Assembly: GCA_965250285.1 (NCBI GenBank)
Contig: OZ252299.1
Coordinates: 416,001-480,000 of the forward strand
Length of the DNA stretch: 64,000 nt
Origin: Myxococcota bacterium
GTDB taxonomy: Bacteria > Myxococcota_A > UBA9160 > UBA4427
Direction of reading: 5' to 3'
Position numbers and translations under genes: made by a program. The notes beneath the pieces are model-generated. The model had not been told where the DNA came from. It was given only the letters and a program-made list of their open reading frames with translations, and did not search any database. Shown here piece after piece: positions 31,069 to 60,441 of the stretch. Position 1 is the stretch's first letter. Each line of letters begins with the position of its first letter.

Positions 31069-31080
31069 GGCGTCGACCTC

Positions 31081-31893: not shown

Positions 31894-32537
31894 GATGCCT
31901 CCTGCCGACGCTGGGCGACTCGGGTCGGCTCGGCTGCGGGCACGGATGCCTCGACGGGCGAGTCGGCTTCGACGCCCTGTGGCAGCACATGGGCAACGCC
32001 CTTGTGACAGCTGATGCACGTCTTGCCGCGGGTCATCGACGTGGAGTGGAACTCCTGTGCCCTCGGTGACTGCTCGGCGAGGTCCCAGGTCGAGGTGTCG
32101 TGGCAGTTCCGGCACTCTCGGCTGTCGTTCGACTCCATGTCCCGCCAGACGCGCGTCGCCATCGTCATGCGGTGCGCCTCGAACTTCTCGGGTGTGTCGA
32201 TCGTTCCGGCGAGATGGTGGTAGACCTCCATCACGGCGCGCGCCTTGCGCATGTACTTCGGCACGACCTCGTTCGGGATGTGGCAGTCGGCACAGGTCGT
32301 GCGGAAGCCGCGCGCGTTGAGCGCGTGCGAGCGCGTCTCGTAGTCGATGCCGATGTTGACCTCGAGCTCGTGACACGACAGGCAGAAGGCGTCGGTGCTG
32401 GTGGCGTGCATCGAGTAGTCGAATGCGAGCAGGCTCATCACGCCGCCCACGATGCCGACACCCACGAGAACGCCGAGGGCGACGGTCGGGTGCGGCGTCG
32501 CGATGCGTTCCCAGACGTTGCGCAGCCAGTCTCTCAT
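31890..32537 (-). CDS. NapC/NirT/CymA-family tetraheme quinol dehydrogenase
   Basis: N-terminal TM; FCLSCHE, CADCHIP, ECRNCH, TCISCHKGVAH; GTIDTPEKFEAHR. Confidence 0.92.
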   Translation of the reverse strand: MRDWLRNVWERIATPHPTVALGVLVGVGIVGGVMSLLAFDYSMHATSTDAFCLSCHELEVNIGIDYETRSHALNARGFRTTCADCHIPNEVVPKYMRKARAVMEVYHHLAGTIDTPEKFEAHRMTMATRVWRDMESNDSRECRNCHDTSTWDLAEQSPRAQEFHSTSMTRGKTCISCHKGVAHVLPQGVEADSPVEASVPAAEPTRVAQRRQEAS

Positions 32538-35275: not shown

Positions 35276-38200
35276 TCAGAGCCAGCTGTTGATGATGATG
35301 AACGGTGCCCAGTAGTACGGATGCGTCGAAGATGCGTCCGAGATCGCTGCATGCTGGGCTCGCCGGAGCGCTTCGGCCCGGCTCACTCCGTCCTGGTTCA
35401 GCTCGCGGTAGAACCGCGCGATGAGGTCTGAAGTCGCCTTGTCGTCGACCGACCAGAGCGTGCCCAGAACGCTGCGCGCGCCCGCCCGGACGGCAATGCC
35501 CGAGAGCCCCAGGGCCGCCCGATCATCGCCCGCCGCGGTCTCGCAGGCCGACAAACCGAGCAGCTCGAGCGGCTCTTCTCGGTACTGAAAGCGCCCGATC
35601 AGCAGCTCGAGATCGTCCACCGCAAGACGTCCGTCCGATGTGAGCATGAAGCTCTCTGAGTCGGCGCCCTCGAAGACGGCATGCGTCGCGAAGTGCACGA
35701 TGCCGTAGTCGCCTTCCCGAATCCGGGTTTCGATGCCGGCCGTGCTGAAGGCCTCGTCGAGAAGAACGTCGCCACCGATCTCGTTCGAGATCGCATCGAC
35801 CTCGGCCTGAACGTTCTCGAGGGGGGCAAAGTCGAGTCGACTCTCCGTGAGCCCACCGATGAGTGCCCGCATGGTTCCCGTTGGAATCGCGCGTGGTGCG
35901 GTCATGGCCATTGAGGGAGCCACGCCGACGGACCAGCGCTCGACGAGGAAACGCTCGCCGTCGTGCAGCGCGGCCATGGGGATCGTACGCAGTGCGCCGT
36001 CTGGAACAAAGACGATCGTCTCGATCGAGGGATCGTCGAGGTAGGGCTCGAGCGGACGAACGAGGTCGTCGTAGAGCGATCGGGCAGGTTTGAGATACTG
36101 CCTCGTCGTGCGCTTGGTCAGGAGTCGCCGAAGCTGACGCACGTCGGCTTCGATCTCGGCCTGGGTGACCGGTACGGTCACGCGCTCGAGGTCGCCGTCC
36201 GGGAGCGTCACGAGCAGCTCGAGCCGGTCGGGCAGCACGATTGGGTAGACGATCAGGGCACCATGCGACACGTCATCGACGCTCTGCTCGCTCGCGACGA
36301 GCGCGTCGATGCAGGGGTCATCGAAGTAGTCGCGCAGCTCGGAGGCCTTCGAGGTCTCGATGACGTCGCGGACTCGTCGGTATCGGTGCTGCGAGTCGCT
36401 GCCTACTCCTCTTTGCTCCGACCGAAGGAGCTGATCGACGAGGCCATAGTGAACCGCTGCGATGTCGCGCCGAAAGGCGCGGTTCGGAGGCGGGGCCTCG
36501 AAACGCAGTCCCTCCAGCTGGTCGAGGGAGCGGTTGTAGGCCGCAATCGACTCGGTCGGCCGGTCCATCTGCCCCAGCGCCCGGGCCGACTGCCACTCGG
36601 CGACGTAGATCAGCTCGGGTGCATTGGCCTTTCGTGCGAGTCGCGCCGCCTCGCGCGCAAGCTGCAAGGATTCTTCGGCACGGTCTTCGTCTTCATAGAT
36701 GCGGGCCAGCCCCGACCACGCCGCCGCCGCCGAGCGAGGATCCCCGAGCGCTTCGGCCTCACTCTTGGCGGCCATCAGCTGCACATAGGCCCACTGGCGC
36801 GAGCCCGCGTGGTGCCTGGCGAGCATGCGGGCGGTCTCGGCGAGGTGCAGCCGCGTCTCGGCGAGCTCGGCTGAGGGAGGCGCGTCGGCGATGGCGGTTG
36901 CCGCCTCGTTCCACGATCTCATCGCGCTCGCCGGATCGTCCAGATCGCTCTGGATGCGCGCGGCCAGCGCCAGGGCGCGGGCCGCTGCGATCGGCAGGTC
37001 GGCATCCGATGCAGCGGACGCCGACTGCGCAAGAGCGTCGAGCGCTTCGGGTGTGCGGCCGAGCTGCTGGGCCGCCCATCCGCGCTGCAGGTGCACCCGC
37101 GCCTGGGCCTCGTGGGGCAGGGCGCTCTTCATGGCAAGCGCGTCGAGTTGCTCCAGCTGGCCTTCGGTGGCTCGCTTCTTCGATCGAGCCGCTTCGCGAT
37201 CCGCTTCGGTGAGAATCACGAGCGTAGGGTCATCGAGCGTGGCTGCCCAGGCCGCCGCCGTGTCGCGATGATCCGATGCCACGCGTTGCTGCCCCAGCGC
37301 CTCGCGGATGTCGGTGAGCGCGCGCAGCCACGTCAGGTGCTCGGCCGATGGGCCAACACCCGCGAGGCTGGCATCGAGCAGATCGGCGGCCCGTGCCCGG
37401 TGCCCTGCGCGAAGCGCTGCTTCGACTTCGGGCGGGAGCGCCCCCGGTCGAGCGCCCCCTTGTCGGGTGCCAGCGACCGTCGGCCCGAGCCAGCGATCCG
37501 GGGTCGGCGGCGTTGCGTCGCGGCGACCGACGACGAAGCTCGACTTCGCGTGGGGATCGCGAGCCGCGCACTGCGCCGCGAGCTGGCTCGAAGCGGTGAG
37601 CATCGTCTCGGGCAGAACCTGAACGCGCTCGATCAGATTGGTGTCGGCGGCGCTGATGAAGATGCGACCGTCGATGCCCAGCTCGGTCGAAGCGTCGAGG
37701 ATCGTATCGCTCGAGATCAGCACGCCACTGCCGCGGATGTCGATGTTGCCTCCGAAGCCGGTGATCGCGCCCGCTCGCACCTCAGCGCGGTTGAGGAGCA
37801 CCCGCTCACCCGAGAGCGCGACGTCCCCCCCGCTGCCATCGCCCTGGGTCGTGACGCGGGTTTCGATTCGACCCTGATCGACTTGGAGATCGGCGGTCGT
37901 CGAGATCGAGATCTGCCCACCCGCCGAGCGGGTCGCGTCGGTGACGACGGCCGCATCGGTCAGCCTGAACTCGCTCGACTCGATGTCGATCTTTCCCGAG
38001 TTGCCTGCGCCCGACGCGGCTGCACTCACGCGGGCGCCGCTTTCGATCTCGATCTGACCCGCCGAGCTGAGTTGGATGTCTCCCGACGGCTCGACCGACG
38101 CCCCATCGGTGCTGACGATGCCGCCATTGCGGATCGCGATCAGCCGGGTGCCCGTGAGCTCGATTCCGCCCCCACTCGCATCCGATCCGACCCCGCGGAG

Positions 38201-40534
38201 GTTCGTGTTGATCGAGCCCCCGTCGACGACCAGCGTCTCGGCCGCATTCATCGAGATGTTGCCGGCGTCGCCCGACAGCAGGGATGTGGCCGAGACGAGC
38301 GCGCCGTCCGTGACTCGAACGTCTCGAGCGTCGACGCGGATCTCGCCGGCCGGGCCGACGTTGCCTTCGGCGGTCATGAAGCTGTCGAGGCCGTCGACGG
38401 TGAACGTTTCGTCGACGTCGACGGTGATCGAGCCCGCCGCGCCCGCGCCGTTCGTCGTCACGCCGACGCCGGCGCCATCGAGGACGCTCATGCTTCTCGC
38501 CGAGACGATGATCTCACCCCCGTCGCCGGTCGCGGCCGACGACTCATCCGGGCCCGACTGCGAGAACACGCCCGAAGGGGTGGCGGCAGCCGCGCCTGAG
38601 AGAGTCAGTGTGTCGGCCAAAGCCAGTTCGACGTTGCCGGCGTCGCCCGCGCCGTCGGTCGTCGAGAAGATCTGCGAGCCGCCCGAAGCCGACACACTGC
38701 CGGTTTCGATTCGCACACCCAGCCGTCTTCCGTCGATCACTCGGCCGGCGTTGCCCTGACCGAGCGTCGTCGCAGCGAGGGTCGATGCGCCGTCGAGTCG
38801 GAGGCTGCCCGACGCGCCGCCCGTGACGAAGATCGTGCCCGCGTCGCCGGTTGCCGTGGTGCCCGACTCGGTTCGGATCTCCGCGCCGTCGGTGATCTCG
38901 ATCTGCCCGCCCGTCAGCATGATGTCGCCGCCGCGGCCCGTCCCGTTGGCAACCGAAGAGACGTCCGCGCCCTGGGTGACCGAAATGGATCCGTCAGGAC
39001 CGGCATCGAGTGTGATGCCGCCGATCGGTCCTGTTGACGCGCTAATCGAGTCGGTTCGGACCTGCGAGGCGTTGGAGATCGAAATCGTCGAGCCCGAGAG
39101 AGACACGCTTCCCGATCCACCGACACCCACAGTTGTCGACCCCACGAGCGAGCCATCGGACACGACGATCGCCCCCGCGTCGCCAGTCTCGATCGCAATC
39201 TCGCCGGCGTTACCCGATGCGACCCCCTCGGATGTGGTGAAAACGAGACTCGAATCGCCGATTGCGACCGAATGGGCCTCGATCTGGATCCCGGCTCCCT
39301 CCCCGTCCCCGGTCGCGAATGTCTGCGCCGCGGCCGATTCGATCACGACTTCGTGGGCTTCGAACAGGAGGGGTGCACTGCTGGCGCCCGACGAATGACG
39401 AATGCCCGAGAACAGGCCGTCGGGAAGGGTGTCGCTCACTTCGATTCGACCGCTCGACAGCCGAACGCCTCCGACTGCTTCGTCGCCGTCGCCCAACGAG
39501 CCGATCAAACTGCGGTTTCCCGACATCAGGATCTCGCCGTCGGTCTCCACGTCGACCGCCCAAGGCTCTTGCCCATCGCCCCCGGCCACTAGCTTCGACT
39601 GGTCCAGAGTGAGTCGACCGCCCCGGATCACGATGCGACCCCGGTCCGGGAACTCAGCGGCTCCACCAAAACAGAGGGTTTGATCGACACAGACGATCGA
39701 GTCATCGACGAACTCGATCTCGCCCGCGCCGATCGATGGCGTCCAACTGCTCACGTCGACGGGAACCTGGGCCCCGCCGCTCCCGACCGCCGCAACACGC
39801 ACGGTGCCGGCCCGCGAGACCAGGCCCGCCGCGTCGAACCGCACGTCGCTGGCGATGATGGTGACATCGGCCTCGGCGCCGAAGTCGAAGGGGGTGAACG
39901 ACCCGGGTAGAGAACCGGGGGCGCCCCGAAACTCGACGACGCCCGTCCCGCCCGCGTCGATCAAGAACGATGAAGGGGTGCCGCTGCTCAGCGGTGGGGA
40001 TGGGTCGTCGACGCGAAAGACCGAGGCGCCCGACGCGTCGTCGAACACCAGGCCGTCGGCGGTGGTGAGAAAGACGCTGCCCGATACGTCGACCTGCGCC
40101 CCCTCAGTGAAGAGCACGCCCATGGGGTTCAGCAGGTAGAGGCTCACGCCGGGTGAGGTCGTGAGCGGCCCCGAGATCGTCGAGCCCGTGTTCCCAGCCG
40201 CGGCATCGCCCGTCACTCGCGTGATGATGCGCTGAATCGTCGGGTCGCTGTTGAAGGTCGCGCTCTCGCCGACGTCGACGTCGAAGATGCGAAAGCTGTG
40301 GTAGAGGTTCGCTCCGCTCGCTTCGCCGTCGGCCTGATCGATCGTGAAGTCGCCCGACCGCACCGCCCCGTCGGGGTTGGGGCCAATGCTCCCGTCGAAG
40401 ACAGCCTCGCTCCGGGCCACCTGAGCGACCGCGAGCAGCGCCAGCAGCTCGAAGAGCAGTACGCCGAGCGGACCCATTCGATGGCGGCCAGGATGCGTTG
40501 CGGCCCATCGCGCCCCATACGCAGTGCTCGGCAT
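35276..40534 (-). CDS. Filamentous hemagglutinin-like TpsA protein fused to TPR and CHAT (caspase-like protease) domains
   Basis: Signal peptide; TPS domain NLYHSF..F...LLNPMGVLF; about 1000 aa G.GG.I.I beta-helix; QCAAR..SSFVV linker; TPR-like helices; CHAT FVPDG.LR.IP, HFATH, LSACET, TLWSV.D, HPYYWAPF. Start at 40534 (AGGA RBS) or 40477. Confidence 0.87.
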   Translation of the reverse strand: MPSTAYGARWAATHPGRHRMGPLGVLLFELLALLAVAQVARSEAVFDGSIGPNPDGAVRSGDFTIDQADGEASGANLYHSFRIFDVDVGESATFNSDPTIQRIITRVTGDAAAGNTGSTISGPLTTSPGVSLYLLNPMGVLFTEGAQVDVSGSVFLTTADGLVFDDASGASVFRVDDPSPPLSSGTPSSFLIDAGGTGVVEFRGAPGSLPGSFTPFDFGAEADVTIIASDVRFDAAGLVSRAGTVRVAAVGSGGAQVPVDVSSWTPSIGAGEIEFVDDSIVCVDQTLCFGGAAEFPDRGRIVIRGGRLTLDQSKLVAGGDGQEPWAVDVETDGEILMSGNRSLIGSLGDGDEAVGGVRLSSGRIEVSDTLPDGLFSGIRHSSGASSAPLLFEAHEVVIESAAAQTFATGDGEGAGIQIEAHSVAIGDSSLVFTTSEGVASGNAGEIAIETGDAGAIVVSDGSLVGSTTVGVGGSGSVSLSGSTISISNASQVRTDSISASTGPIGGITLDAGPDGSISVTQGADVSSVANGTGRGGDIMLTGGQIEITDGAEIRTESGTTATGDAGTIFVTGGASGSLRLDGASTLAATTLGQGNAGRVIDGRRLGVRIETGSVSASGGSQIFSTTDGAGDAGNVELALADTLTLSGAAAATPSGVFSQSGPDESSAATGDGGEIIVSARSMSVLDGAGVGVTTNGAGAAGSITVDVDETFTVDGLDSFMTAEGNVGPAGEIRVDARDVRVTDGALVSATSLLSGDAGNISMNAAETLVVDGGSINTNLRGVGSDASGGGIELTGTRLIAIRNGGIVSTDGASVEPSGDIQLSSAGQIEIESGARVSAAASGAGNSGKIDIESSEFRLTDAAVVTDATRSAGGQISISTTADLQVDQGRIETRVTTQGDGSGGDVALSGERVLLNRAEVRAGAITGFGGNIDIRGSGVLISSDTILDASTELGIDGRIFISAADTNLIERVQVLPETMLTASSQLAAQCAARDPHAKSSFVVGRRDATPPTPDRWLGPTVAGTRQGGARPGALPPEVEAALRAGHRARAADLLDASLAGVGPSAEHLTWLRALTDIREALGQQRVASDHRDTAAAWAATLDDPTLVILTEADREAARSKKRATEGQLEQLDALAMKSALPHEAQARVHLQRGWAAQQLGRTPEALDALAQSASAASDADLPIAAARALALAARIQSDLDDPASAMRSWNEAATAIADAPPSAELAETRLHLAETARMLARHHAGSRQWAYVQLMAAKSEAEALGDPRSAAAAWSGLARIYEDEDRAEESLQLAREAARLARKANAPELIYVAEWQSARALGQMDRPTESIAAYNRSLDQLEGLRFEAPPPNRAFRRDIAAVHYGLVDQLLRSEQRGVGSDSQHRYRRVRDVIETSKASELRDYFDDPCIDALVASEQSVDDVSHGALIVYPIVLPDRLELLVTLPDGDLERVTVPVTQAEIEADVRQLRRLLTKRTTRQYLKPARSLYDDLVRPLEPYLDDPSIETIVFVPDGALRTIPMAALHDGERFLVERWSVGVAPSMAMTAPRAIPTGTMRALIGGLTESRLDFAPLENVQAEVDAISNEIGGDVLLDEAFSTAGIETRIREGDYGIVHFATHAVFEGADSESFMLTSDGRLAVDDLELLIGRFQYREEPLELLGLSACETAAGDDRAALGLSGIAVRAGARSVLGTLWSVDDKATSDLIARFYRELNQDGVSRAEALRRAQHAAISDASSTHPYYWAPFIIINSWL

Positions 40535-40538
40535 CGTC

Positions 40539-43500
40539 CTATTCCGGCACGGCTTTGGCGCAGACTCCGCGGAGCGGTGTGCCGAGGCCGGCAACGGCGC
40601 GTTGCAGCACGGCGATGTCGCGAATGTCGATCTCGGGGCCACCGACGACGCTGCCGAGATCAGCCACCGCAGGGTCGAGATCGATGCCCAGGACGAAGTC
40701 CCAGAGTTTGTCGACATCGTCCTCGACGGGCGGACCGAAGACGGCCCCGGTCTCGTCGGTGTCGCCGCACTGGCACGCATCGCCGATGCCGTCGACGATC
40801 GGAGCGGTCCCGAGCAGGGCGCCGGTATCGGCATTCGTCGGGTCGGGTTCGAAGATGCATCGATCGCCATCGTTCTGAATGCCGTCCCCGTCCTGGTCTG
40901 GTGCCGCGTTGAAGAAGCTGGTCAGCTCGGCACGCTCGAGCGCCGACTGATCGACGGCGGCGAGCAGCGATACGCCCACACCATCGTGGTAGGGCAGCTC
41001 TTCGACTCGACCATCGGTGAGGCTCAGCGTACCCGAAACCGGGCTGCTGAGCGTGATTCGGCCCACGCAGTTGAGCGCGCTGTCGGTGCCGTAGCCCAGG
41101 GTCGTGCCGCCGAGTAGCCACGGCAGATTGCCCTCGAGCACGATGTAGAACACGTCGGGGAGGAGGCCCGCCGCGGTCGCCGAGGCGGGGTCGAGCGGGT
41201 CGACGGTGAACGAGATCGGATCTCCATTCACGTCGAGACCCGTCTGCACGCCCGGCAGGCTCCCCGCACCACAGCTGCGCTGGTCGACCCCACCGCCGTA
41301 GTCTTGCGGGGTCGCATCGCAGCCGCTCAGCGAGATCGTCTCGGCTGAAGTGGCATACCCATCGGGCAGGGCCACGCCGACCGCGATGCGATGGAGCGGC
41401 TCGGCGTAGCTGAAGCACACGTCGTACTCGGTCGCGGCGATCGGGTCCTGCCCGGGCGCGGGGCCGATGCGGATGTCGACCGGCGGCAGGTCTCCGGGCG
41501 GCGGCGGCGGGCAGGCGAGCCCACAGGACTGGCTCGCGATGTAGCTCACGATCGTGATCAGCCCGCCGTCGGTCGGCTCGGGCACCGGGAACACGTCGGC
41601 CACCCCCTGCTGCGTCAGATACGCATCGGGCAAGCTGCCACCGGGGTCCGGGTTCAGCGAGACCTCGCCGAGGTTGATCTCGGCAAGCGGGGGGCACGCG
41701 ACGAGATCGAGATCGAGATAGAGCGTATCGCCGCGTGCGCCCGGGTTGGGGGCGGGGGGGGGCACGACCGTCGCGAGCGAGACGTTGGTGGCGTCTTCGG
41801 TGAAGACGGGCGCACCCGGGTACTCGGGCGGAATCGCGATGCCCGTCTGAATCTCGGTGGGCGGCGAGCTGCCCGGGCAGGTCAGCGTGAGACGGAACGC
41901 GGGATCCGCCGCGTCGCCAATCTGTTCGAGGTTCAGGAACCCGTTCTCGCACACATCGCCGATGCCGTCGCCGTCCTCGTCGAGCTGGTCCGAGTTGCTG
42001 GCGAGCGGACAGTTGTCGCAGACGTCACCCACACCGTCGCTGTCGCCGTCGACCTGGGACGGGTTGTAGAGGAACGCGCAGTTGTCGAGTCCGTCGGGGA
42101 GCCCATCGAAGTCGCTGTCGCGCACCATGCTGCGCGTGGTCAATGCTTCGATGGCGTCGATTCTCGCCGGGAGCCCGCTGTGGTCGTTCCCGGTGAGGCG
42201 CACGAACCGGAAGGCGTCGGTCGCGTCGAAGCCATGACCGTCGCCGTCGACATCGACGGCGGCGGCGCAACCCGTGATCTCCTGCATCGTGCCGCTGAAC
42301 CAGTTCGAGCCGTCGGCGCTGTATTCGACCGAGAACGGCCGCAGGAAGTCGCTGCTGAGACCGTTCGTTCCGACGTACACACAGAAGTCGGGGTCGTTCG
42401 TGCCGCTGCCGCGGATCACGTTGTCGACGAACTGGAGGGTCAGCCTCGAGCCCTGGGGAAGCTCGGCCCAGGGGAACTGCCACGCCACTGCGCCGGCCAG
42501 CTCTTCGGGATCGTCCGTCGGGGCGCCGAGCGCGAAGGTCGGGTCGACGACGGCGCCCTCGACATCGACGACGGCGTCGGCAAAGATCGTCGAGTCGGCG
42601 CCCTGCATGAGCATGATGAAGCCGTTTCCGGAGCCTTGGGGCGGGCTACCACCCGACGGTCCACCCATCGCAGCGCCCACGAAGAGGTCGAGCACGTCGT
42701 CGCCATCGATGTCGCCCAGCGGCGCGACCGCCGAGCCGAGTCCGTTGCTCCGCCAATCGCCGAGATCGATCGGGTTGATGGTGCCGACGGCCGAACCCCG
42801 CGTGTTCTGCACGGTCGACGCACCGCGGATCGATCCGTCGTCGTCGAGCGGCACGAAAATGAGCCCCCCGGTGGCTTCGAAGGGCGGCGGCGCCGGACAG
42901 AGGAACGTCGGCTCGAAGGGTGCGCACGAGGGATTCGGGAACAGCTCACTGCCGATCGCCAGGGTGCCGCGGCTCGTGGCGTCGTCGGCATCGGGCAAGA
43001 ACGCGAGGGACGTGCCAATGCGGGCGTCCGGCGGGATCAGCACGCGGGATACGGGGAAGACGAGGCCCTGATTCGAGCTGATCTTGCGGTACGACGCCAC
43101 GGTCTCGTCGAGCGCCAGCGATACGATGTACACGGCTCCGGCGTTGCTCGCGTTGGTGGCATCGTCGCCGGGCGCGGCGATGGCGATGTCCGCGCCGCCG
43201 TCGCGATCGAGGTCGCCGAGGCTCGTGACCGAGAAGCCCAGCGCGTCGAAGGGCCCGACATCGCCGGGAAAATCCTGTCCGGTCAGCTTGGCGTGGCTCT
43301 TCACGGTGCCGCTGGCGTTCATGTAGAGGATCCAGACGGCTCCCTGGTCGGGGCCACCGTCGTCGTCCCCCGACGCCCCGACCAGAAGGTCGGGTACGTC
43401 GTCGCCATCGAGGTCGCCGGGCGTGGCGAGCGCGCCGCCGAAGCGATCCCCTACGTCGAGTGATCCCGCGAAGCTGCCGTCGGAGTCGTTGATGCGTTGG

Positions 43501-46500
43501 AAGCTTCGAACCGTTCGGTCGGGCTCCATGAAGAGAACGTATACGGCGCCCTTGCCCGCCACGTCGCGGGGGGCCCCCACGATCAGGTCGGAGAGACCGT
43601 CGCCGTCTAGATCGCCGGGCGATGCGACCGCGGTGCCGAAGCGATCGGTGGTCGAGAGCAGGCCGCCGGGATCGAACGCACCGGTCAGTCCACCCGACGA
43701 ATCCGAGATCTCGACGTCGAGCGCGCTCACGATCTGCCCGAACCCGTTCGGCGAGACGATGAAGACCGCGCCTCGGCCGTCGCGTGCGCCCGGTGCTCCG
43801 ACGGCGACCTCGACCAGGCCATCGCCGTTGAGGTCATCGAGTGCGACGGCACTTCGGCCGAAGCCGGCGTCGGCCTCGAGCGTAAGCGAGACGAACGTAC
43901 CGGACACTTGATTGACCTGCTTCGGTCGAGGGATCGGCACGCCCTCGGAGAGGGCCGACTGCAGGCCCGGGAACTGCGCCGCGACGCGAATCGCAGGGTC
44001 GTCGTCGACGTCGATCGAGAACGACTCCGCGGTGACGGTGATGACGTTGACGTTGGCACTGGCCGTGATGTCGCGCGCCTGAAGCTCGGGGTTGGCATTG
44101 ATCGCGGCGGCGATCTGCGCCGTCACGTCGAATGTCGAGTCGCCCGTCGACGTGTCGAGTTCGATGGTGACGTCGTCGACGATGATCTCGATGCGGCCGC
44201 CCACTGCATTGCCACCGAGCAAGACGATGGTCTGCTCCGGCTGCAGCGAGAAGCGTGCGGCCGTGACGCCGGGCTCGTTCGCCGCGTCGACGGCGAGCCG
44301 ACCGCCGACGACGAGGCGTCCGCCCGGACGTGCGTCCGCCCAGACACCGCGCGTCTGCAGGGTCGGATCCGCGAGGATCGCGTCGGCTGCGTCGCGCGCG
44401 AGCTGATCGGCGCCGAATCCGTTTCGTGCGAGCACGCTCACCGTGACGCCGTCGACGCGAACGTCGACGGAGCCGCCGGCCGGATAGCCCAGGAAGAGGG
44501 CTGATTCTTCGCCGCGGCAGGCGCTCGAGCAGCCGTCGCCATCGAGGAGATTGCCGTCGTCGCATGTTTCGGTGGGGTCGAGTGCGCCATCGCCGCAAAG
44601 CGCCTCACGGCCATCGACACTCATCACATAGACGGCGCCTGCATTCGTCTGGCCGTCATCATCCGCGAACGCGCCCACCACGATCTCGCGCCGCCCGTCT
44701 CCATCGAGATCGCCGATCGACGCAGGCCATCGGCCGAGCGAGTCGCCGTCGAGGAGGCTCGCATCGAAGCCGCCAAGCCCTTCCGTGATGCGCTCACTGC
44801 GCATGACGCGGCCAAGTTCATCGAGGAAGAGGAGCCAGAACGCGCCCCGGTTCGTGCCCGCGGTGTCGTCGTTGTACGCGCCCGCGATCAGGTCGGTCAC
44901 GCCATTGCCGTCGAGATCGCCGAGTCGGTCGAGGCCCAGCCCGAAGAACGTCGAGGATGTGAGCACGTCGGGGAAGCCGCCGAGACCGCTGCCGATTCGG
45001 AATTCATCGACGACCTGCTTCGTCTCGGGGTCGACCGAGAGCATCCAGATCGAACCCAGGTTCGAGCCCGCTGGCGCCGCGCCGTCGTCGTTGCGAGCGG
45101 CGACGGCGAGCTCGACCAGGCCATCGTGTCCGATGTCGCCCAGGTAGGCGATTGCATCGCCGAAGTGATCGGTCGTCGTGAGCGAGCCGCCGAAGCCCCC
45201 CTCGGTCGCGCTGTACTTGACGAGCGATTCGACCGAGCCCACTTCGGGGTGCCCGGGGCCGTGCAGCGAGAGCATGTAGACCGCGCCCGCTTCGGTGGCG
45301 CCGTCGGCATCGCCGTAGGCCCCGACGGCGATCTCGAGCCCGCCGTCCCGGTCGAGGTCGCCGACGGCTTCGATGCTCTCGCCGAATCGGTCGGAGACGT
45401 CGAGGGTGAGCCCTGCAGCCGCGATCGCTTCGCTCAGGCCGCCCTCATCGGCGTTGATCAAGACATGGTCTCGGACGCTGAGGTCGCCGGGGCCGCTCGA
45501 CTGCAGGAAGAGCACCCAGACCGCGCCCGTGCGCGTATTGGTGCCGCTCTCGCCGTCGTCGCCCACGGCGCCGACACCGAGGTCGACGATGCCGTCGCCG
45601 TCGACGTCGCCCAGGGCGGCGACCGCGCCGCCAAACGCGTCACCGATCTCGATGGGGCCGGTGAAGCCGCTCTCGACGCTCGGCAGAAGAAGCTGGCGAA
45701 CGATCTCGCCGTCGGTGGCGAGAGACAGGATCCGGAGCTGGCCCGAGCCACTGCCGCCAGCTGCGGGCAGACCCACTGCGACCTCGGTCGTACCGTCGCC
45801 GTCGATATCGCCCAGCCCGGCGGTGCTGCGTCCGAAGGATGCGAAGGCGGTGAGCAGCCCGCCGGGATCCCCCGGGCCCGACAGACCGCCCGAGGTGTCG
45901 CTGATCTTGCGGATGTCGGTCACTGTGCCGAGTTCGAGCCCCAGCAAGCCTGAATCGGTGGTCGAGCTCGAAGTGACGCTCACTCCGCTCAACACCAGCG
46001 TCTCGCCACTGGCGAAGGCCGTGAGCCGCTTCGTGCCGAGCACAGGATCGGATGCGATGGCCGATGCCAGCGCCGATGCGACGTCGGGGCCGGTGTCGCC
46101 CGGGCTGGTCACGATGCTGATCGGTTCGCCGAGGAGCGCGATGTTCACCGTACCGCCGGTCGCAAGGCCTGAGATCGCGAGATGGGTCTCGGGCTCACAG
46201 ATCGATGAACAGCCATCGCCTTCGACGTTCCCGCCGTCGTCGCAGGCTTCCACCGGGTCGATCCGTCCGTCGCCGCAGACGGCAGTGCCGCCGTCGAGCT
46301 CGATCAGATACACGGCGCCCGTGTTCGAGCCCGTCCCATCGTCGTCATAGAAGGCGCCCACGGCCAGCAGCGGGCCGCCCAGGCCGTCGAGTGAGGGGAG
46401 CGCGGTCAGCCCGTAGCCGAATCGATCGTCGGGATCGATCTCGCCCGCGAGCTCGGGGTTCTGCGGGCCGAGCTTGACGACCGAGGTCACCGGGTTCGCG

Positions 46501-49500
46501 GTCGACGCCGGGTTCAGGAACAGCACGTACGCTGCGCCGGCCTGACCGCCCCCGTCGTCGTCTCGGTTCGCGCCCGCGGCAATCTCGTTGTCTCCATCGC
46601 CGTCGAGGTCGGGCAGGAGCGTCAAGCCTGCGCAGAGGCGGTCGTCCGACTCGACGAATCCGAGCGGGAACCCGCCCTGGCCGGGCCGGATCGTCTCGAA
46701 GTACTTCGCGGCCGTGCCGTCGGGGTTCAGGCTGATGATCTTGATCGATCCGGTGTTGCTGAAGCCCGGTGGCTCGTCCGTGTACGCACAGCTCGCGATC
46801 TCGATGCGGCCATCCCCGTCGATGTCGCCCAGGGGCTCGACCACCGTTCCGAACTGATCTCCGCCATTCACGAACTGGGCGACGACGCGCTGCGGTGCGA
46901 GATCGAGCCTCGCGCGGCCCGTGCGATCGAGGAAGACCACCCAGACGGCTCCGCCGTCTGTGGGGTAGAAGTCGTCGAAGGGGGCACCGACGACGAGATC
47001 GCCGACTCCGTCGCCATCGATGTCGCCGGCCGCACCGACGTCGTGCCCAAAGAAGTCGCCGGCGCCGAGCGTGTTGGCCGGAATGCCGCCCTCGCCGTCG
47101 GCCAGCTTCATCGCCGACAGCACGGTGGATGAGTCCGCCGCCATGAAGAGGATGTAGACGGCGCCTTCGGCATCGCCGCTCGCGCCTACGGCGATGGCGT
47201 AGGCGGAGGGGCCCGGCCCATCGAGATCACCGAGATACGCGACGCCGAGCCCGAGGAAGTGACCCGCGCCGAGGCTGTATCCGCTCGCAGCGAACACGGC
47301 CCCGAGGTTGCCACTGGTCGCAGACAGCTTCGTTTCGCTCTTCACGGTTCCATCCGCGTTCATCAAGACGATGAAGATCGCGCCCGCGTCTGTGAAGCCG
47401 TCGTCGGTGGTGTACGCGCCGACGATCATGTCGGGGACACCGTCGCGGTCGAGGTCGGCGCCGTCGATCGAGACGCCGAGACGATCGTCGCTCGCGAGGA
47501 GGCCGCCCGGATTGCCCGGCCCGGAGAGTTCGCCCCGCGTGTCGCTCAGCTTCACGACGCTGCGGATCATTCCGACATCGAGACCGATGAGGCCGGGATC
47601 CGTCGTTCCATTCGATTCGAGTACGGCTCCGCCGACGACCAGCCGGTTGCCGTCGGCCAAGGCCTCGACGCCGCGAACGCCCAGCGTGCCGTCCGCGACG
47701 ATGGCCGCGGCCAGCCGCGCGGCGACGTCGTCGGGCGTATCGCCCGCGAAGGTCGACACCGAGATGTCGACGCCATCCACCAGCAGGCTGGCCGAACCGC
47801 CTGTCGGCGCGCCGTCGACAACCAGCCACTCCTCTTGTTGGCAGGTGGCTGAGCAGCGATCGCCCGACATCGTGTTGCCGTCGTCACACGCCTCGGCCGC
47901 ATCGAGAATCCCGTTGCCACAGGCGGGCCCGAGACCATCGATGTCGAGAAGCCACACGGCGCCGGATTCGTTCTGGCCCCCGTCGTCGGCGCGCGGCGCG
48001 CCCACCGCGAGCTCGGGCCACCCGTCGCCGTCGAGGTCCCCGACGCTTGCGACCGATGCGCCGAAGCCGTCGCCATCGGCGAGTGGCCCAGCGAAACGAC
48101 CGAAGAGCGTGCTGATGATGTTGCGCTCGCGGTTCGAGTCGGCGATCTCGATCGGGTCCGTCCCGCCGAAGGGCGTGAAGTTGTCTCGGCCGAGCGAATG
48201 AATGAGAAGCGCGCCGCGGCTCGTCCCACCTTGATCCTCGAAGGGGCCCCCGTCGGCCAGCTCCGGAACGCCGTCGCCATCGAGGTCGCCGAGCGAAGCC
48301 AACGCGTGCGCGTAGCCTCGGACGCTCGATCTCTCGACGCAGAGCCCCGTCGAGTCGAGCTCGAGGATCGCGATCAATCCGGGCAGCTCGCCGGTCGACA
48401 CGCCCGGCAGCGCTCCGGTCGAACCGACGGCGAGAAGGTTCCGACTGCCGCCATCGGGGTCGCCGATCACAGCAAGGCTCTCGCCGAAGCGCGTCCGCCT
48501 GAACGTCTGCGGGTAACAGTTGTTGGGATCATTCGCGTTGTTCGTCAGATTGCTGAGCTTGGATTCGCGCTCGACGTTGCCCGTCTGCGAGAGCGAGACG
48601 ATCCACAGTGCGCCGCGGTCGGGGCCGGTTTGCGGCGCACCCGCATCGTCGTCGTCGTCGCCGGGAGCGCCGATGGCCAGCTCGGGCCGATCATCGCCAT
48701 CGAGGTCGCCCAGGAAGGCGACGCTGCGGCCGAACTCATCGCCGACGTCGAGGTTGCCGCCGAACCCCGCGAGTCCTTCGCCGATCACCGCCGAGCCGGC
48801 AACCGTGCCGTCGGGGGCGAGGAAGTAGATCCAGACGCTGCCACCGAGGCCGGGGCCGTCGAACGGCGCGCCGACCGCGAGATCGGGGACGCCATCGCGA
48901 TTCAGATCGCCGATGCCGGTCAGCGATGCGCCCAGCGTCCCGTGATCGAAGGGCGCGGGGAAGCCGGGTGCACCCGTGACGAGCTCGATCTCGCTGCGAA
49001 CCGAGCCATCGGCGTTCATGAAGAGGACGAAGAGTCCGCCGTTGTTCGGCTGTCCGTCGTTGGCCTGACTCTGGCCGACCGCGAGGTCGTCCACGCCGTC
49101 GCCGTCGACGTCGCCGATCAGCGCAACGGCTGAGCCGAACTCGTGCGTCGCGTCGATGATGCCGCCTAATCCACCTGCGTTGCTGATCTTGCGCTCTTCG
49201 AGAACCCGCCCGAAAGCGGAGAGCGCCGTGACGCCCGGGTCCGTGCTGGCTGCGTCGGTCAAGGCGCCGCCGCTGACGTAGAGACGCTCTCGAAAGTGGG
49301 TGGCCCGAACGCCGCGCGAGGCCAATGTGATGTCTGCGTGCACCGCGTCGACGAGCGCCGCCGCGATCGACTCGCCGCTCTCGTCGAGGAGGGGCGCGAT
49401 CGAGATCACCTGGCCCGCGATGTCGAGCTGAACCAGGCCGCTTCCGGTGCCGATGCCGAGCAAGTCGACCGTCGCCTCCGTCTGACAGAACGCTGAGCAC

Positions 49501-52500
49501 CCGTCCCGATCGTCGGCGTCCCCGAAATCGCAGGTTTCGCCGGCATCGAGGATCGCGTTGCCGCACTCGGCGAAGCCGCTCGACAGGAACGCCGTCCAGA
49601 CGCTGCCGCGATCGTCGTCCCCGTCGAGTGGAGCACCGGCGACCAGCTCTGGAGCCCCGTCTCCGTCGAGGTCGGGCGAGATGGCGAGCCCGGCGCCAAG
49701 CCACTCCGAGCCGAGCGCGAGACGTCCGTTGGCTGCGTCGAAGAGCGGGAGCGGTGTCAGGCTCACGACGGGGTAGGTGATCACGAGCGTGTTGTTCACG
49801 ATCTCGACGTTCACGTCCGATTCGAGTACCCAGACCTGCCCAGTGCCCGAGCCGTTCGTCGAATCGGTCCGAGCGCCGACCGCGAGGTCGACGCGCCCGT
49901 TGCCGGTGAAGTCTCCAAGCGGCGTGATCGACGAGCCGAAGCCCGCTCCACTCGGGCTGGACAGGTCGAAGGTGATGTCGGTCGGGTCCTCTCGCCCCCC
50001 GTCCGCCTTCAGGAACATCACCTCGACTTGATTCGAGCCAGGCCGTCCCAGGGCGAGGTCAACCGTCGACTCATTGCTCCGGTTGAAGTCGCCCACGTTG
50101 GCGAGGGACTCGATCCCCCCGTCTTCGATGTGCTCGACGTACTCTCGAATCGAGCCGTCCCGATCGAGGAAGAGGATGTGGATCGCAGTGCTGACAGTGC
50201 CCGACAGACCGACGGCGAGATCGGGTACGCCATCCCCGTCGATGTCACCCAGGCCGGCTGCCGACGATCCGAAGCCAAAGAAGGGTGGGACGACCGCTGT
50301 GAATCGACCCAGGCCCGGGCCGATGGGCGTCGCGTCTCGCACCGTGCCGTCGGCGTTGAGAAACAGGATATGAACGCGGCCGTCCTGGTCCACGATGGTC
50401 GAGTGATCTGGCGAGCCCACTGCGACGTCGGGGATGCCGTCGCCGTCGACGTCGCCGACGGCCACGACGGAGGTGCCGAAGCGGCTCGCGGCGTCGAGGT
50501 CGGCGAGCGCCGGCTCGATCGAGGCGACGATCTTGTGCGAAGAGATGGGCGAGCCATCTGGCCCGCGGCGCACGACCCAGATGGCTCCGTCGTCAGCGCC
50601 GTCCTGGGGCGCACCGATCGCGACATCCGTCGTCCCGTTCGCATCGAGGTCGCCGAGATCGGCGACTGAGCCGCCGAAGAGATCTCCGTTGGCCGAGACG
50701 CCGAGATCGAGATTCTCGAGCTCGAGCAATAGGGGGATCGAAGCGTCGCCGCTCGGCCGGGCGAGGATCAAGCCAGGATCGGTGTCTGCGAAGTCGGTGA
50801 GGATGCCACCCACGACGAGTGTGCCGCCGAGGTTGGCGGCGGAAACACCCTTGGCGGAGAGGGTCGGATCGGCCGAGATGGCAGCCGCGAGCGCAGCTGC
50901 GATCTGGTCGCCCGAGTCTCCGGCCGTGGTCGGAATGCTGATCTGCACCCCCTCGACGACGACGTCGACGACGCCTCCGCCGAGGGCCTGGCCGAACACG
51001 TCCAGTTGCTGCTCGAGCCGGCAGGTCGAGCTGCATCCATCGAGCGCTGCGGGGTTGCCATCATCGCAGGCTTCGATCGGCTCCAGCACGCCATTGCCAC
51101 ACGCCCCATCCGCGCCCGCGACCTCGACGATCCACAGCGCACCGCGATCGACGTCCAGACCATCATCGCCGGGTGCGCCGATGGCCAAAGAAGGGAGCGT
51201 GTCACCGTCGAGGTCGCCCAAACCGGCGAGTGCACGGCCGAAATGATCGAAATCGGCGAGGCTGCCTACGAAGCCACCGTTCGCTTCGGTGATCTTGCGC
51301 GTCTCGGTCGCCTGTCCGTCGGCTGAGAGCGAGATCAGATAGACGGCTCCGGCTTCCGCCCCCGCCTCACTGTCGCGCTCGGCCCCGACCGCGAGCTCGA
51401 GTTGCCCGTCTCCGTCGATGTCGCCGAGTCGACCGAGTCCCGAGCCGAACCCGCCCTCGTTCGAGACCACTCCATTGAAGCCACCCTGGCCGGCGCCGAT
51501 GCGCTGTTCAGCGGACACGTTTCCCGAGCTGTCGAGAAACAGGATCCACACCGTCCCCGATGCCGATGCGAACTGTCGCCCCGGGCCCCCGATGGCAACG
51601 TCGTTCACGCCGTCGCCATTGAGATCGCCGACGCCGACGACGGACGAGCCGAACGCGGTGTCGCCCGGAATGACCTGAGGCAGCGCGAACCCGCCGATGT
51701 CGACGCTCGTGCGCACCATGCCGCTCGGCTCGAGGAAGAGCAGCCACGCACCGCCCGAGAGAAAGCCCGTCGTCGACGAGCTGGGCGCACCCACGACCAG
51801 CTCGGGTACACCGTCGCCGTCGATGTCGCCCGGCGAGCCGACAGCGGCCCCGAACTCGACGCCGGGGCTGAGCAGCCCCGTGAACCCGCCCTCGCCACCG
51901 CCGCGGGCGCTGATCTCGAGATGATCGAGGACGCTCCCGTCGGCGGCGAGATAGACCAGCCAGACGGCGCCTTCTTCGTTGAAGCCGTCCGCAGTCGCGG
52001 GCGCGCCAACCGCGATGTCGGGGACGCCGTTGCCGTCGAGATCGCCCATCCCCGCGACGCCGGCTCCGAATCGGCGGATGTCGACGCCGGTGGCGAAGCC
52101 GCCGATTCCTTCGGCGATCGACGTCTCAGAGGCGACGGTGCCGTCCGCGTTCATGAACAGGATGCGGACGAGCCCGCGATCGACTCCCGCGTCGTCGTCG
52201 AGCGGGCTGCCCACGGCGAGATCGTCGACGCCGTCGCCATCCACGTCTCCGATCCATGCGACCGACGATGCAAAAGCTTCGCCCGCCTCGAGGACGGCAC
52301 CCAACCCGCCGGCGTTGTCGGCGATTCGAACCTCGTCCACCACATCACCGAGCGCGAACACGATCTCGGCGCCCGAGTCGCTGCTTTCGGGCGCGAGGAT
52401 GACTCCATCGGTATAGAGGCGGTCCCCGAACGTCGTTGCTGCGACGCCTTGGTTCTGGAGAGTCGGATCGTTGTTGATCGCACTCGCGAGGGCGGATGCA

Positions 52501-54692
52501 ATCGCACTGGGCCCCGCTCCAAGACCGGGCGTGATCGCGATGAGGACAGCGTCGACCGTGACCTCGATCAGACCATCGCCCGCACCTTGCCCGAGGAGCA
52601 GCGCTGATGTCTGATCTCGACACGACGCGCTGCAGGCGTCGCCTTCGAAGAGCCCCCCGTCGTCACACTCTTCGCTCGGGTCGAGTACCCCATCGCCGCA
52701 GACCTCAACCGAGCCAATGAGCGACGCCGTATAGGCCGCGCCTGCGTTTGCACCGTTCGCATCGAACGCTGGATCCGTCCATGCGAGCTCGCTCACCCCG
52801 TCGCCATCGAGATCGCCGAGTGCTGCGAGGCCCAATCCACGATCGCCACTGCCCGGTGTATCGAACACCTCGGTCGCGATGACGGTGCCGCCGGGCCCGG
52901 TGGACACGAGCATGAAGCCGTCCCGGGGTGCGAGCGAGCCCACGAAGTCGGAGAACCCATTGCCGTCGAGATCGCCGATCGACGCCAGAGAAGCGCCGAA
53001 TGCGTCGTTGGAAAGGAGCGGGATGCCGGGACCGGAGCAGGTGGGGCCGGTGCAATCGGTGCTGTACTTATAGGCAGCGTTGACGCCACCGCCCGTGTCG
53101 AGGAGCACGATGTACGATGCACCGCGGCTGGTGTCGGTCGGCGCACCGATCATCAGATCGGGTGTGCCATCGCCGTCGTAATCGCCGAGCTCGGCGGGTC
53201 GTGAGAAGCCGTCGTCGACCCCGGGTGTTTGACTGAATCCGAGGGTGAGAAACGCGGGCTCCGTGCCGTCGATGACGGTTGAAGAGCGGACCGTGCCGTC
53301 GCGACGCATGAAGAGGATGTGCACGACGCTGGGGTTCAGGAAGCCCAAGACCCCGTCGGCTCCCTGGCCCACCGCGATTTCGGTGACGCCGTCGCCGTCG
53401 ACGTCTCCGACGCGCGCGATCGCCTTGCCGAATCGGTCGTTCATTCCGAACGCTGCGGCGGGCAGGCCGCCCGAGCCGTTGGCGATCTTGATGTGCTCGC
53501 GGACCGTTCCGTTCGCATTCATGAAGAGGATGTAGACCGCGCCTGAATCGGAGAAGTCCGTATCGTCGCTGGGCGCACCGACGGCGAGATCGACCACGCC
53601 ATCTCCGTCGAGATCGCCGATGCCCGCCACTGCGCGGCCAAACTCGTCGTCATCGTCGAGTACGCTCGCGAGCCCGCCGATCCCGTTCGAGATCTTCGTC
53701 GTCGCGAGTACTTCGCCGACCGCATCCAGGTTGATGACGTAGATCGCGCCGCGATCGTTCTGGCCAGGAGCCGGGTCGTCGCCGGCCGCACCGATCACCA
53801 CATCGTCGAAGCCGTCACCGTCGAGGTCGCCGATCCCCGTCGCATCCGAGCCGAACTCGTCGCCGGCATCGAGGGGATTGCCGAAGTTGGCGACGTTGTT
53901 GATGATCTCGAACTCGGCACCGACGAAGACAGCGTCGGCAGGCTGTGAAAGTGCGAGGGCGCCGATGAAGACGAGGAGTCCGTTTGCAACTCTTGATCGG
54001 TGATGGCAGCGCGAAGAGCGGCGCACACGTGCGATGACCAAGAGCCCGAGCAGACCCGCTGTGAGCAGCGTGCCGAGCGTCGGTTCGGGTACCGCGACCG
54101 CGGGCTGGCTGCTCACCAGGACGGTTGGTTCTAGGCGGGCATCGACGCCGAGACTGTCACCGGCGATCACCCACAGCGCCCCGTCGGTGCCGGTGACATC
54201 GACCTGGAGCTCGCCGAGGTAGAGACTGCCCGGCGCCGGCGCGAAGTCGCCGCCGTCCAGGACATTGATTCGTGCGATCCGAATCGAGGTCGCACTCTCG
54301 CGATGTGAGCGCGTTTCGCCCGTAAGCTGGGTGTTGGGGACGAACTGCACGATCGAGAGGCCGCCGGTCGCCTCGATCCGCAGCTGAAAGCCGCAGACTT
54401 CATCTCCCAGCGCATCTTCGCAGACGATCTGATTTCCCGTCGTGAAAGTCGCTTCTGGACCGGTGTGCATTCGGAGCTGAAGTGGAACGAGGCCGGCCTC
54501 TGAAGACACGGTCGTCGGTGCGCCGGTATATGCGGCCCCGCCCAGATTGAGGTAGACGGTTGGGGGCGCGCCGGCCGACGCGTCGCCTTGGAGGAGCATG
54601 AGCCCCGTGAGCACCAGGAGCCCGAGCGATCGGAGCGGCCGACTCAGAGCGGTGCATCGGCACGATCTGAGGCTCGGTCGGCGATGGCCCAC
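40539..54692 (-). CDS. Giant (4717 aa) secreted FG-GAP beta-propeller / Myxococcus Cys-rich repeat protein with internal PEP-CTERM, TSP3 repeats and a dockerin-like C-terminus
   Basis: Uninterrupted ORF; dozens of FG...GDLDGDG..DLAVGAP repeats in 7 blocks; 6 CGDG..D..E.CDDG.....DGCS..C repeats; TSP3 D.D.DG..D..DNC. Confidence 0.92.
44514..52700 (-). repeat. Six Myxococcus cysteine-rich repeats marking 1.5-1.7 kb intragenic super-repeats
   Basis: First Cys codons begin at 52700, 51101, 49565, 47921, 46277 and 44597 on the minus strand (spacings 1599, 1536, 1644, 1644, 1680 nt). Confidence 0.88.
53931..54092 (-). other. Internal PEP-CTERM sorting motif followed by a second Sec signal peptide (residues 201-254)
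   Basis: [25 protein letters not shown] then [29 protein letters not shown]. Confidence 0.8.
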
Positions 54693-54739: not shown

Positions 54740-56548
54740 ATGTCAGGCATCGCGGCCCGCAGCGCGACACCGCTCACTGTACCCGGATTGGCGCCCCACT
54801 TGTCTGAACTTGTCGTGATCAGTCTCTGCCGCTGGGCGCTCTCGTGCACACGACGGTGTGGGGTGGCGTCCGGGCTGGTGGCGACTCTCATGAGTTGCGC
54901 ATTTGCAAGCGGCGCCGACGCCCAGCCCCTGCCCAATCCGCGGGTTCTGCCGGGCAATGAGCAGCCCCCGGAACTCGAGCCCGCGCCCACGCCTCGGGCC
55001 CCTTCGCTGTTACCCCCGGCTCCATCTCCCGAGGGGGGCGCTGATCCGTTCTCCGATGTCCAGATTTTCGTCTGGGTCGATGCCATCGAGATTCGAGGGA
55101 ACACGGTTCTGCCGCCGCGCGTGCTCGTGCAAGAGACCCGGCCCTTCGTGGGAAGACGGGTTTCGAACGCCGATCTGCTCGATCTCCAGCGTCGGCTGAC
55201 ACGGCTCTATGTCTCGGCCGGCTATGTCACGTCGTTCGTGCGGATCCCAGATCAGGATCTCGGTGAAGGTGTCATTCGATTCGACGTCGTCGAGGGAAGG
55301 CTCGCCGAGACCCGAATCACCGGCCTGAAGACGCTCGCAGCTCGGTATGTCCAGGTGCGACTGGTCCCCGATCCCGATGCTCCGCTCGATGTTGCGAGCC
55401 TCGAGCGGAGGCTCGATGCGTTGCAGCTCGATCCCCGGATCGATTCGGTCCAGGCGCGGATCTCGGCCACGGCTCATCCAGGGTTTTCAGCACTCGAAGT
55501 TCACGTCGTCGAGTCTGATCGTTGGCGAGCGCAGCTCGTCGTGGCCAATGACCGCCCGCCCGCGATCGGCCAGACGAACGGGCGGATCGGCTTGGGCTAC
55601 TCGAACGTGAGCGGCTATGGCGACGACACTGTGGCCACGGGCGTGTTCAGCCAGGGGTTGAACGAGATCGCGGTGACGACCACGGTGCCGGTCAATCGAT
55701 TCGATACGTCGGTCGGCGCGCAAGGGCGATTCGTCGACAGCGAGATCGTGACATCGGTCTTCGCCGATGACGACATCGCGGCGCGCTTCTGGAGCGTCAG
55801 CTTGCTGTTGAAACAACCGATCGTCCAGACGACGAAACTGCAGTGGGATGTCGGGCTCGTCGGGGAGCTGCGGCAGACCACGAGTACGCTGGGCGGCGAG
55901 CCCTTCAACACGAGCCAGGCTTCGGTCGATGGCCGGCTGCGCGTTTCGGTGCTTCGATTCACGACAGACCTCGTCTATCGCGATCTCAGTCAAGTATTGG
56001 CTGTGCGCACCGTCCTCAGCGTGGGGCTACCGATTCTCGGCGCGTCCACGTCGGCGAACGGTGTCGACGATACGCGGTTCACGAGCTGGCTCGGTCAGAT
56101 GCAATGGGCTCGTCGGTTGCCATGGTGGCACGTGGAGGTGCTCTCGCGCTTCGATTGGCAGTTGGCTTGGGATCCGCTGCCGCCGATCGAGCGGTTCGCT
56201 GTCGGAGGCGTGCGCTCGGTGCGGGGCTACACCGAGAACCGCCTCGTTCGCGACAACGGCTTCAGCGCCACGTTCGAGACTCGGCTACCGGTGATTCGAA
56301 GCCCCGAGTTTGGGTCGAAGCTCTCGTTGGCGGCCTTCGTCGATGGCGGGCGGTCGTGGTCGCGGGATCGCGGGCCGACGGTTGGGCCGCAGAATCTCGC
56401 GGGCGCAGGTCTGGGGCTGCTCGCGTCTCCGACTTCATGGTTCGACGCGCGCTTGTACTGGGGCGCTCAGCTGATCTCAGTCGAGCAGAATCAGGCGGGG
56501 CTGCAGGGGCAGGGCGTGTACTTCTCGCTCACCATGCGGCGGGAGTGA
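54740..56548 (+). CDS. ShlB/FhaC/HecB family (TpsB, Omp85) secretion protein
   Basis: POTRA (I.GNTVL, LY...GYVTS, V.EG.L), beta-barrel with GG..SVRGY and DNG motifs; start uncertain (54740/54815). Confidence 0.9.
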   Translation: MSGIAARSATPLTVPGLAPHLSELVVISLCRWALSCTRRCGVASGLVATLMSCAFASGADAQPLPNPRVLPGNEQPPELEPAPTPRAPSLLPPAPSPEGGADPFSDVQIFVWVDAIEIRGNTVLPPRVLVQETRPFVGRRVSNADLLDLQRRLTRLYVSAGYVTSFVRIPDQDLGEGVIRFDVVEGRLAETRITGLKTLAARYVQVRLVPDPDAPLDVASLERRLDALQLDPRIDSVQARISATAHPGFSALEVHVVESDRWRAQLVVANDRPPAIGQTNGRIGLGYSNVSGYGDDTVATGVFSQGLNEIAVTTTVPVNRFDTSVGAQGRFVDSEIVTSVFADDDIAARFWSVSLLLKQPIVQTTKLQWDVGLVGELRQTTSTLGGEPFNTSQASVDGRLRVSVLRFTTDLVYRDLSQVLAVRTVLSVGLPILGASTSANGVDDTRFTSWLGQMQWARRLPWWHVEVLSRFDWQLAWDPLPPIERFAVGGVRSVRGYTENRLVRDNGFSATFETRLPVIRSPEFGSKLSLAAFVDGGRSWSRDRGPTVGPQNLAGAGLGLLASPTSWFDARLYWGAQLISVEQNQAGLQGQGVYFSLTMRRE

Positions 56549-56607: not shown

Positions 56608-60294
<3,687 letters not shown>

Positions 60295-60441
60295 GGTCGG
60301 GCTCCGTGGCGATGGGGTGCCGTGACGTCGGGGTCGATGCGCGTCGCGGCTGTCTGGGCGGCCGATGGCCACCGAGGGTAGGGGGCCGAGCGAGCGGACG
60401 CGGGCCACGCGCAACCCCCCGGATCGGCTCGCGAAGCGCGG

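Follow-up and report, generated by a model that had tools for sequence, protein, structure and literature searches.

A single reading frame joins a cohesin-fold domain to a giant adhesin-like cargo through an internal PEP-CTERM tag and a predicted second signal peptide

Analysis of the window, that is, the whole stretch of 64,000 nucleotides under study, confirmed that a 4,717-codon frame in which an internal PEP-CTERM sorting tag runs into a predicted second signal peptide is genuine, and that junctions of this kind are commoner than chance. We consider it probable that this single frame encodes a secretory polyprotein, which would be cut into a surface anchor and an adhesin-like cargo that the anchor holds. 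A broader reading, which we put slightly above even, is that tag plus signal peptide form a general and reusable 'cut here and re-export' junction by which double-membraned bacteria make virus-like secretory polyproteins of up to ten surface proteins per chain, and that in this bacterial order it has given rise to self-assembling genes of cohesin anchor and dockerin cargo in a fixed one-to-one ratio.

The frame lies in a single-contig genome of 6.25 Mb with 68.6% GC, and the homologous proteins carry Myxococcota labels. Its parts and its two neighbours are listed in Table 1. The start codon, GTG 54692, has a weak ribosome-binding signal (-3.0 kcal/mol); inspection by eye agreed with the original prediction that residues 1-40 form a signal peptide. 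Past RVRR, the frame stays open, with neither a stop nor a Met, through SSRCHHRSR and a hydrophobic stretch to A-D-A (residues 252-254, last nucleotide 53931). The predicted course from tag to basic n-region, h-region, A-D-A and FG-GAP array was thus borne out by the frame, the motif positions and 34 PF01839 (FG-GAP) Pfam stretches in the cargo. The cargo, 4,463 aa after residue 254, begins with FG-GAP clusters that have six cysteine-rich acidic repeats (six TIGR02232 stretches) between them, followed by thrombospondin-3-like repeats and then two beta domains; the FG-GAP repeats appear to form about seven clusters, presumably propellers. Searches with the two beta domains (40893-41945), which precede the dockerin-like domain, gave only a weak cohesin lead (third match, score 0.90, 18% of members cohesin, low recognition). 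The cargo is without a TPS domain, as PF05860 sits on the downstream protein and not on this one in the Pfam search.

Table 1 Features of the giant frame and its neighbours in the window.
Feature	Position	Strand	Basis
Whole reading frame (P0001), 4,717 aa	40539..54692	-	open from 54692 (GTG) to 40539
First signal peptide, residues 1-40, GTG start uncertain	54573..54692	-	read by eye
Cohesin-fold domain, residues 41-200 (160 residues)	54093..54572	-	AF2 model and fold searches
Internal PEP-CTERM tag (VPEP, transmembrane helix, RVRR), residues 201-225	54018..54092	-	motif; TIGR02595, 14.5 bits
Predicted second signal peptide, residues 226-254 (basic n-region common with the tag, h-region, A-D-A)	53931..54017	-	sequence
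Cargo body	40782..53930	-	FG-GAP clusters, cysteine-rich acidic repeats, thrombospondin-3-like repeats, two beta domains
C-terminal dockerin-like domain, residues 4638-4717	40542..40781	-	family alignment, profile, model
TPS (haemagglutinin-type secretion domain)-TPR-CHAT protein, downstream	35276..40870	-	PF05860, PF12770, TIGR01901
TpsB/ShlB-type outer-membrane transporter, divergent	54740..56548	+	PF08479, PF03865

The read check revealed no lost stop codon: the junction was spanned by contigs of all three public runs, which were identical across it (0 differences). These runs come from one study and possibly from the source sample; they rule out assembly error and add no biological replicate. 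Two in-frame candidates for an internal start, TTG 54041 and GTG 54026, are located at the end of the first (tag) helix, and the ribosome-binding signal of GTG 54026 (-2.2 kcal/mol) is no better than that of random internal codons (median -2.5). The possibility, raised in the original prediction, that homologues would show two separate genes or that GTG 54026 would serve as an independent start was answered in both directions. Split forms exist and the GTG is present; on the other side, its ribosome-binding signal does not exceed background, and 51 of 96 cohesin rows from related loci are fused.

Genome-wide, a profile trained only on terminal tags of the genome gave 85 tags, 77 terminal and 8 internal. 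A hydrophobic stretch with an AxA-like site, as called by a simple and crude hydrophobicity-plus-AxA rule, followed 7 of the 8 internal tags, compared with 6 of the 77 terminal tags read through their stop, so that the expected recurrence of a PEP-CTERM followed by a second signal was found; the cargos of these seven internal tags are unrelated to one another. The length of a frame alone is weak evidence, because 16 of the 77 terminal tags have at least 250 open codons beyond the stop. A relaxed regular-expression scan for junctions returned mostly noise, and the profile was used instead.

The tag at residues 201-225 had been called a textbook PEP-CTERM. Its PEP motif, helix and basic cluster fit that description, but its 14.5 bits lie below the TIGR02595 cut-off of 16, which 72 of 75 matches in the genome pass; five other internal tags of the genome are over the cut-off (18.2-30.9 bits), and with the profile trained on the genome's own terminal tags the focal tag reaches about 19-20 bits. 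It is the strongest hydrophobic 19-mer of the whole protein (mean hydrophobicity 1.86, versus 1.28 for the second hydrophobic segment) and is not C-terminal, lying 4,517 residues before the protein end. Alignment of 13 junctions showed that PEP and the -1 Ala of the second signal are both invariant, and the second signal has a basic n-region, an h-region and an AxA site by the simple rule and the alignment. The exosortase that was expected somewhere in the genome is represented by six PF09721 matches; all of the five scanned are over the TIGR04178 cut-off, two over that of TIGR02602 and one over that of XrtT. The genome also encodes one signal peptidase I (TIGR02227, 140.4 bits) and a type II secretin over the cut-off. 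The chemistry of exosortase itself is largely predicted.

Since Pfam found no cohesin in any of the 22 members of the small-domain family, a fold search was needed for residues 41-200. An AlphaFold (AF2) model built from 22 homologues (pLDDT 76.7) has 4dh2 as its best Foldseek match (E 5.5e-5, TM 0.61) and, in VIA, aligned to 6kgc over 128 residues (Z 12.5, rmsd 2.8); rows 1-17 of the VIA ranking are all cohesin entries, and unrelated pilin domains appear from Z 9.7. By this model the small domain is a cohesin fold, and its family shares an invariant CxxxxGxExC motif. At the other end of the frame, the C-terminal family has PF00404 (Dockerin_1) matches in 10 of 18 members, with no Pfam match in the window's own domain, and the family profile matches PDB dockerins (best E 3.8e-6). 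The model of this domain (pLDDT 72.3) also has dockerins in its top Foldseek rows, but these are weak (best E 0.064, none under E 0.001), and the second calcium loop is degenerate. Both members of a cysteine pair conserved in the family are lost from the window's domain (40542-40781), consistent with one disulfide having disappeared. Three cohesin-like and three dockerin-like domains in this genome share the same three frames and occur nowhere else in it, as found with profiles that included the genome's own sequences.

The dockerin-like C-terminus and the modelled cohesin fold of the small domain suggest that the giant cargo is likely re-captured by the anchor, and hence probably not released as the free protein originally proposed. 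The polyprotein idea itself gained from the genomic data (the open frame, the recurring junction, the exosortases, the signal peptidase I and the mostly absent start codon), and it is the freedom of the cargo that now looks doubtful. In the mechanism that we favour, the cohesin would be sent across the inner membrane by the first signal peptide, after which the tag helix would stop transfer and leave the arginine cluster inside, a topology established for PEP-CTERM in the available portion of PMC1569441. The same arginine cluster would then act as the n-region of the second signal, restarting export, and signal peptidase I would cut after A-D-A at residue 254 and yield the 4,463-aa cargo. Exosortase would process the tag and anchor the cohesin, to which the cargo dockerin may bind as a one-to-one tether, as the folds and their co-occurrence suggest. 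Because no stop follows the tag, the cohesin is made only within the fusion, even if GTG 54026 is also used.

Among 166 genomes of the order, 58 contain matches to the cohesin profile (97 matches, including three of this genome's own). The 94 fetched loci hold 96 cohesin rows, of which 51 carry a tag and second signal and 32 a tag and stop; the others are one tag with a 93-residue tail, four tags at contig ends and eight rows with no tag called, among them one missed fused case (L134). The fused rows were first found by junction searches in 22 cases and by the cohesin profile in 29, the profile itself being built from junction-bearing genes, and the related loci are kin, not independent. A dockerin is located downstream in the same frame in 39 of the 51 fused rows and in the next frame in 7, with none in the locus in 5 (4 of these at contig ends), and a dockerin gene lies near 22 of the 32 split cohesins (6 downstream, 15 upstream and 1 on the other strand); these co-occurrence counts are partly circular, because the profiles come from related sequences. 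The cohesin always comes first in fused forms, the only order that lets the tag precede the second signal. In one genus (L064, L067, L068 and L070), the dockerin has a gene of its own, which overlaps the one before it and begins with what reads as a signal peptide; the cassette thus appears to have been split at a new place. In three further loci (L142, L166 and L171), the cohesin and a terminal tag end longer frames that adjoin or lie within stretches resembling the window's TPS-CHAT protein; these may be TPS-type proteins with their own cohesin anchor.

In 32 of the 50 distinct fused junctions, the interval that opens just ahead of the basic cluster and closes where the h-region begins is free of ATG, GTG and TTG; some start codon is kept in the other 18, and ATG in 10. 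The tags in fused genes have not decayed: all 50 fused tags and 33 of the 34 split ones (the 34 including two with long tails) retain an intact PEP, and median tag scores are 20.6 and 19.7, respectively (p 0.43). Across seven pairs, dN/dS was 0.09-0.65 for the cohesin, which is only moderately low, and 0.13-0.30 for the cargo; the region of tag and signal reached 1.16 in the closest pair and stayed at 0.20-0.60 in the other six. One cargo family occurs in three states: as split genes with an ATGA stop-start overlap (G104), as a fresh fusion by a 2-nt shortening in which the Met is kept (G106, possibly through an assembly error), and as a fusion without Met (G139). This series supports an origin of the fusion from translationally coupled gene pairs, in which small frame-joining deletions would have been followed by loss of the second Met.

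A search with the junction profile returned 2,498 cluster representatives at E up to 0.001 (63 at 1e-10), many of which may be ordinary terminal tags. Among the best 150 of these, 138 have internal tags, and the second-signal pattern is present at 232 of 247 internal tags versus 199 of 1,375 random positions, the former fraction being circular because the set was selected with a profile that contains the pattern. Chains reach 10 units, with a Met-less junction repeated up to 9 times, and Pfam confirmed the ten tags of one of them (P0002). In two repeat polyproteins (P0015 and P0003), the internal AxA is placed relative to the mature domain as is the AxA of the N-terminal signal. In this wide search the residues after internal tags show no excess of Trp or Gln, so the database matches are not explained by gene callers reading through stops. 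In the complete genome of Roseateles chitinivorans P36 (NZ_CP192577.1), one frame has two internal junctions, of which the first lacks a start codon altogether; a third junction there (L184:9984-10171) is frameshifted relative to a homologue and continues in another frame, which could reflect a natural split, a frameshift signal or a sequencing error. The same strain also carries a two-unit gene, and one protein of Aeoliella sp. ICT_H6.2 shows the junction as well. A protein labelled as from a dinoflagellate assembly (P0153) has irregular junctions and was set aside.

Other junctions were observed in the genome of the window. At G000:C1:1404321-1410746 (L007), a long RHS-like protein is fused to a short YD-repeat-like unit that carries the internal tag plus second signal, as labelled by eye; no start codon is present in the junction. 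Four genomes share a conserved polyprotein of two units, tagged both internally and at its end (G000:C1:2850730-2852523, that is L011, and L044, L048 and L058), and a third conserved polyprotein family (G000:C1:4479517-4482480, that is L009, and L054, L057 and L060) has a different upstream domain and cargo. At G000:C1:960376-962082 (L010), two paralogous PEP-CTERM genes are joined in frame by a long linker that still has Met codons, probably a recent fusion.

Several other explanations of the junction were weighed against the polyprotein with a tethered cargo. We regard it as unlikely that signal peptidase I frees the cargo while exosortase does not act on the internal tag, the cohesin remaining on an uncleaved inner-membrane hairpin from which it may hold the dockerin. 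This would fit the focal tag's score below the TIGR02595 cut-off and the available portion of Haft 2006 (PMC1569441), in which the tag is at the extreme C-terminus (87% of tags with under ten further residues), non-terminal tags are doubted and long-tailed ones are set aside as possibly non-functional; it would also fit Aquincola, where C-terminal cleavage of a PEP-CTERM protein is still undecided in the accessible part of the report. The intact PEP and equal scores of fused tags argue against it, as does the statement in the available text of PMC11980579 that C-terminal tags work mid-protein. Translation of the giant protein mainly from GTG 54026 (or TTG 54041), as an in-frame second gene with the fused product minor, is improbable. 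The GTG would give a complete signal peptide, start codons persist in 18 of the 50 junctions (10 of them ATG) and split ancestors begin at the same position; however, the background-level ribosome-binding signal, the 32 junctions without a start codon and the chains that repeat Met-less junctions all point the other way.

Decidedly improbable, in our judgement, is a processed chain in which coupled genes became fused by a tolerated accident and the cohesin does not bind its own dockerin, the cargo being released or held otherwise, for example via the TPS-TpsB-CHAT neighbours. Fused (51) and split (32) forms are indeed both common, tiny indels make fusions, as in the G104/G106/G139 family, and fusions are also undone, as in the genus with a separate dockerin gene and at the frameshifted Roseateles junction; moreover, TpsB and CHAT genes are each found in 21 of 94 loci. 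Against this stand the constant company of cohesin and dockerin in this genome, the dockerin in the locus of 46 of 51 fused and 22 of 32 split cohesins, and the absence of a TPS domain from the cargo. An uncut two-pass inner-membrane protein with both domains periplasmic is very improbable: the hairpin alone gives that topology and cleavage is purely predicted, but the second hydrophobic segment is a weak anchor beside the tag helix and ends in the conserved -1 Ala, and an AxA-like site follows nearly all internal tags of the wide search, a set selected with a profile containing that site. We give almost no weight to an assembly error that removed a stop or joined two frames. Such fusions are possible in general, this is a single-contig genome, and the 2-nt difference in G106 could be one; the contigs of all three runs without a difference, the same layout in dozens of genomes and the lack of Trp/Gln enrichment speak against it here.

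Among known systems, the Clostridium thermocellum OlpC and OlpA (4dh2, 3ul4) and Ruminococcus ScaE (2zf9), whose structures are among the fold matches of the small domain, present a single surface-anchored cohesin to a dockerin-tagged secreted protein, as proposed here. These are encoded separately from their partners, in Gram-positive cells, and are anchored by SLH domains or sortase, whereas in the present case a single gene of a double-membraned cell encodes both anchor and cargo, the cysteines are of the disulfide type and identity is 6-14%. In Haloferax, the ArtA substrate HVO_0405 is said to have a non-terminal tripartite tag for an exosortase-family enzyme; its internal tag resembles ours, but its post-tag part reportedly stays cytoplasmic and so is not re-exported. 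The Bradyrhizobium FbcH precursor is reportedly split by signal peptidase into one fixed respiratory pair, and flavivirus and pestivirus structural precursors are cut by signal peptidase. Like these, the window junction combines an internal stop-transfer with a signal sequence whose cleavage would give separate exported proteins; unlike the viral precursors, which are processed in the eukaryotic ER, and the fixed pair of FbcH, it would be a reusable module built from a sorting tag. The proposed 'planctosome' (PMC6461901) consists, in the portion available, of separate proteins with another anchor. Compared with PEP-CTERM/exosortase substrates in general (TIGR02595, PF07589), the window protein shares the N-terminal signal, PEP motif, helix, basic cluster and presence of exosortases in the genome; it differs in the distance of its tag from the C-terminus and in running into a second signal peptide.

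The nearest published case is MXAN_5598, with an internal MYXO-CTERM between a TraA-like adhesin and a TraB-like barrel, for which the available text of PMC11980579 proposes a two-gene fusion, with processing and anchoring of the N-terminal part. It shares with our frame the mid-chain sorting tag and the proposed fusion and processing, but its tag and protease are different, it is a single example, and no second signal, multi-unit chains or cohesin-dockerin pair is mentioned in that portion. The novelty claimed in the original prediction therefore needs narrowing: our literature search found neither PEP-CTERM polyproteins nor a cohesin-dockerin precursor of this kind encoded by one gene, but a fusion with proposed processing is in print as MXAN_5598, and FbcH is reportedly a bacterial precursor divided by signal peptidase.

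If the polyprotein reading is true, secretory polyproteins, mostly associated with viruses, would be in routine use among bacteria, C-terminal sorting tags would work mid-chain, and many 'single large proteins' in databases would be several surface proteins. The exosortase reaction would be open to testing, since a single precursor would reveal both ends left by cutting, and a chain of this type is present in one strain whose genome is complete. From the cohesin-dockerin version one can see how a cell with two membranes may tether a protein of more than 4,400 residues that lacks its own anchor, and the junction could serve as a tool for co-export of proteins in a fixed ratio.

In the neighbourhood of the giant gene, the downstream TPS-TPR-CHAT protein likely starts at a Met near 40477. 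Homologues of the TpsB and CHAT genes occur in some of the relative loci, as counted above, often in the order CHAT, cohesin polyprotein, TPS protein and TpsB. Elsewhere in the window, the region 25596-32537 encodes multiheme cytochromes, an MtrC/MtrF-like protein, an MtrB/PioB porin and a NapC/NirT protein, and looks like an extracellular electron-transfer conduit. The region 56608-60414 contains an ordinary B12-dependent methionine synthase gene, metH.
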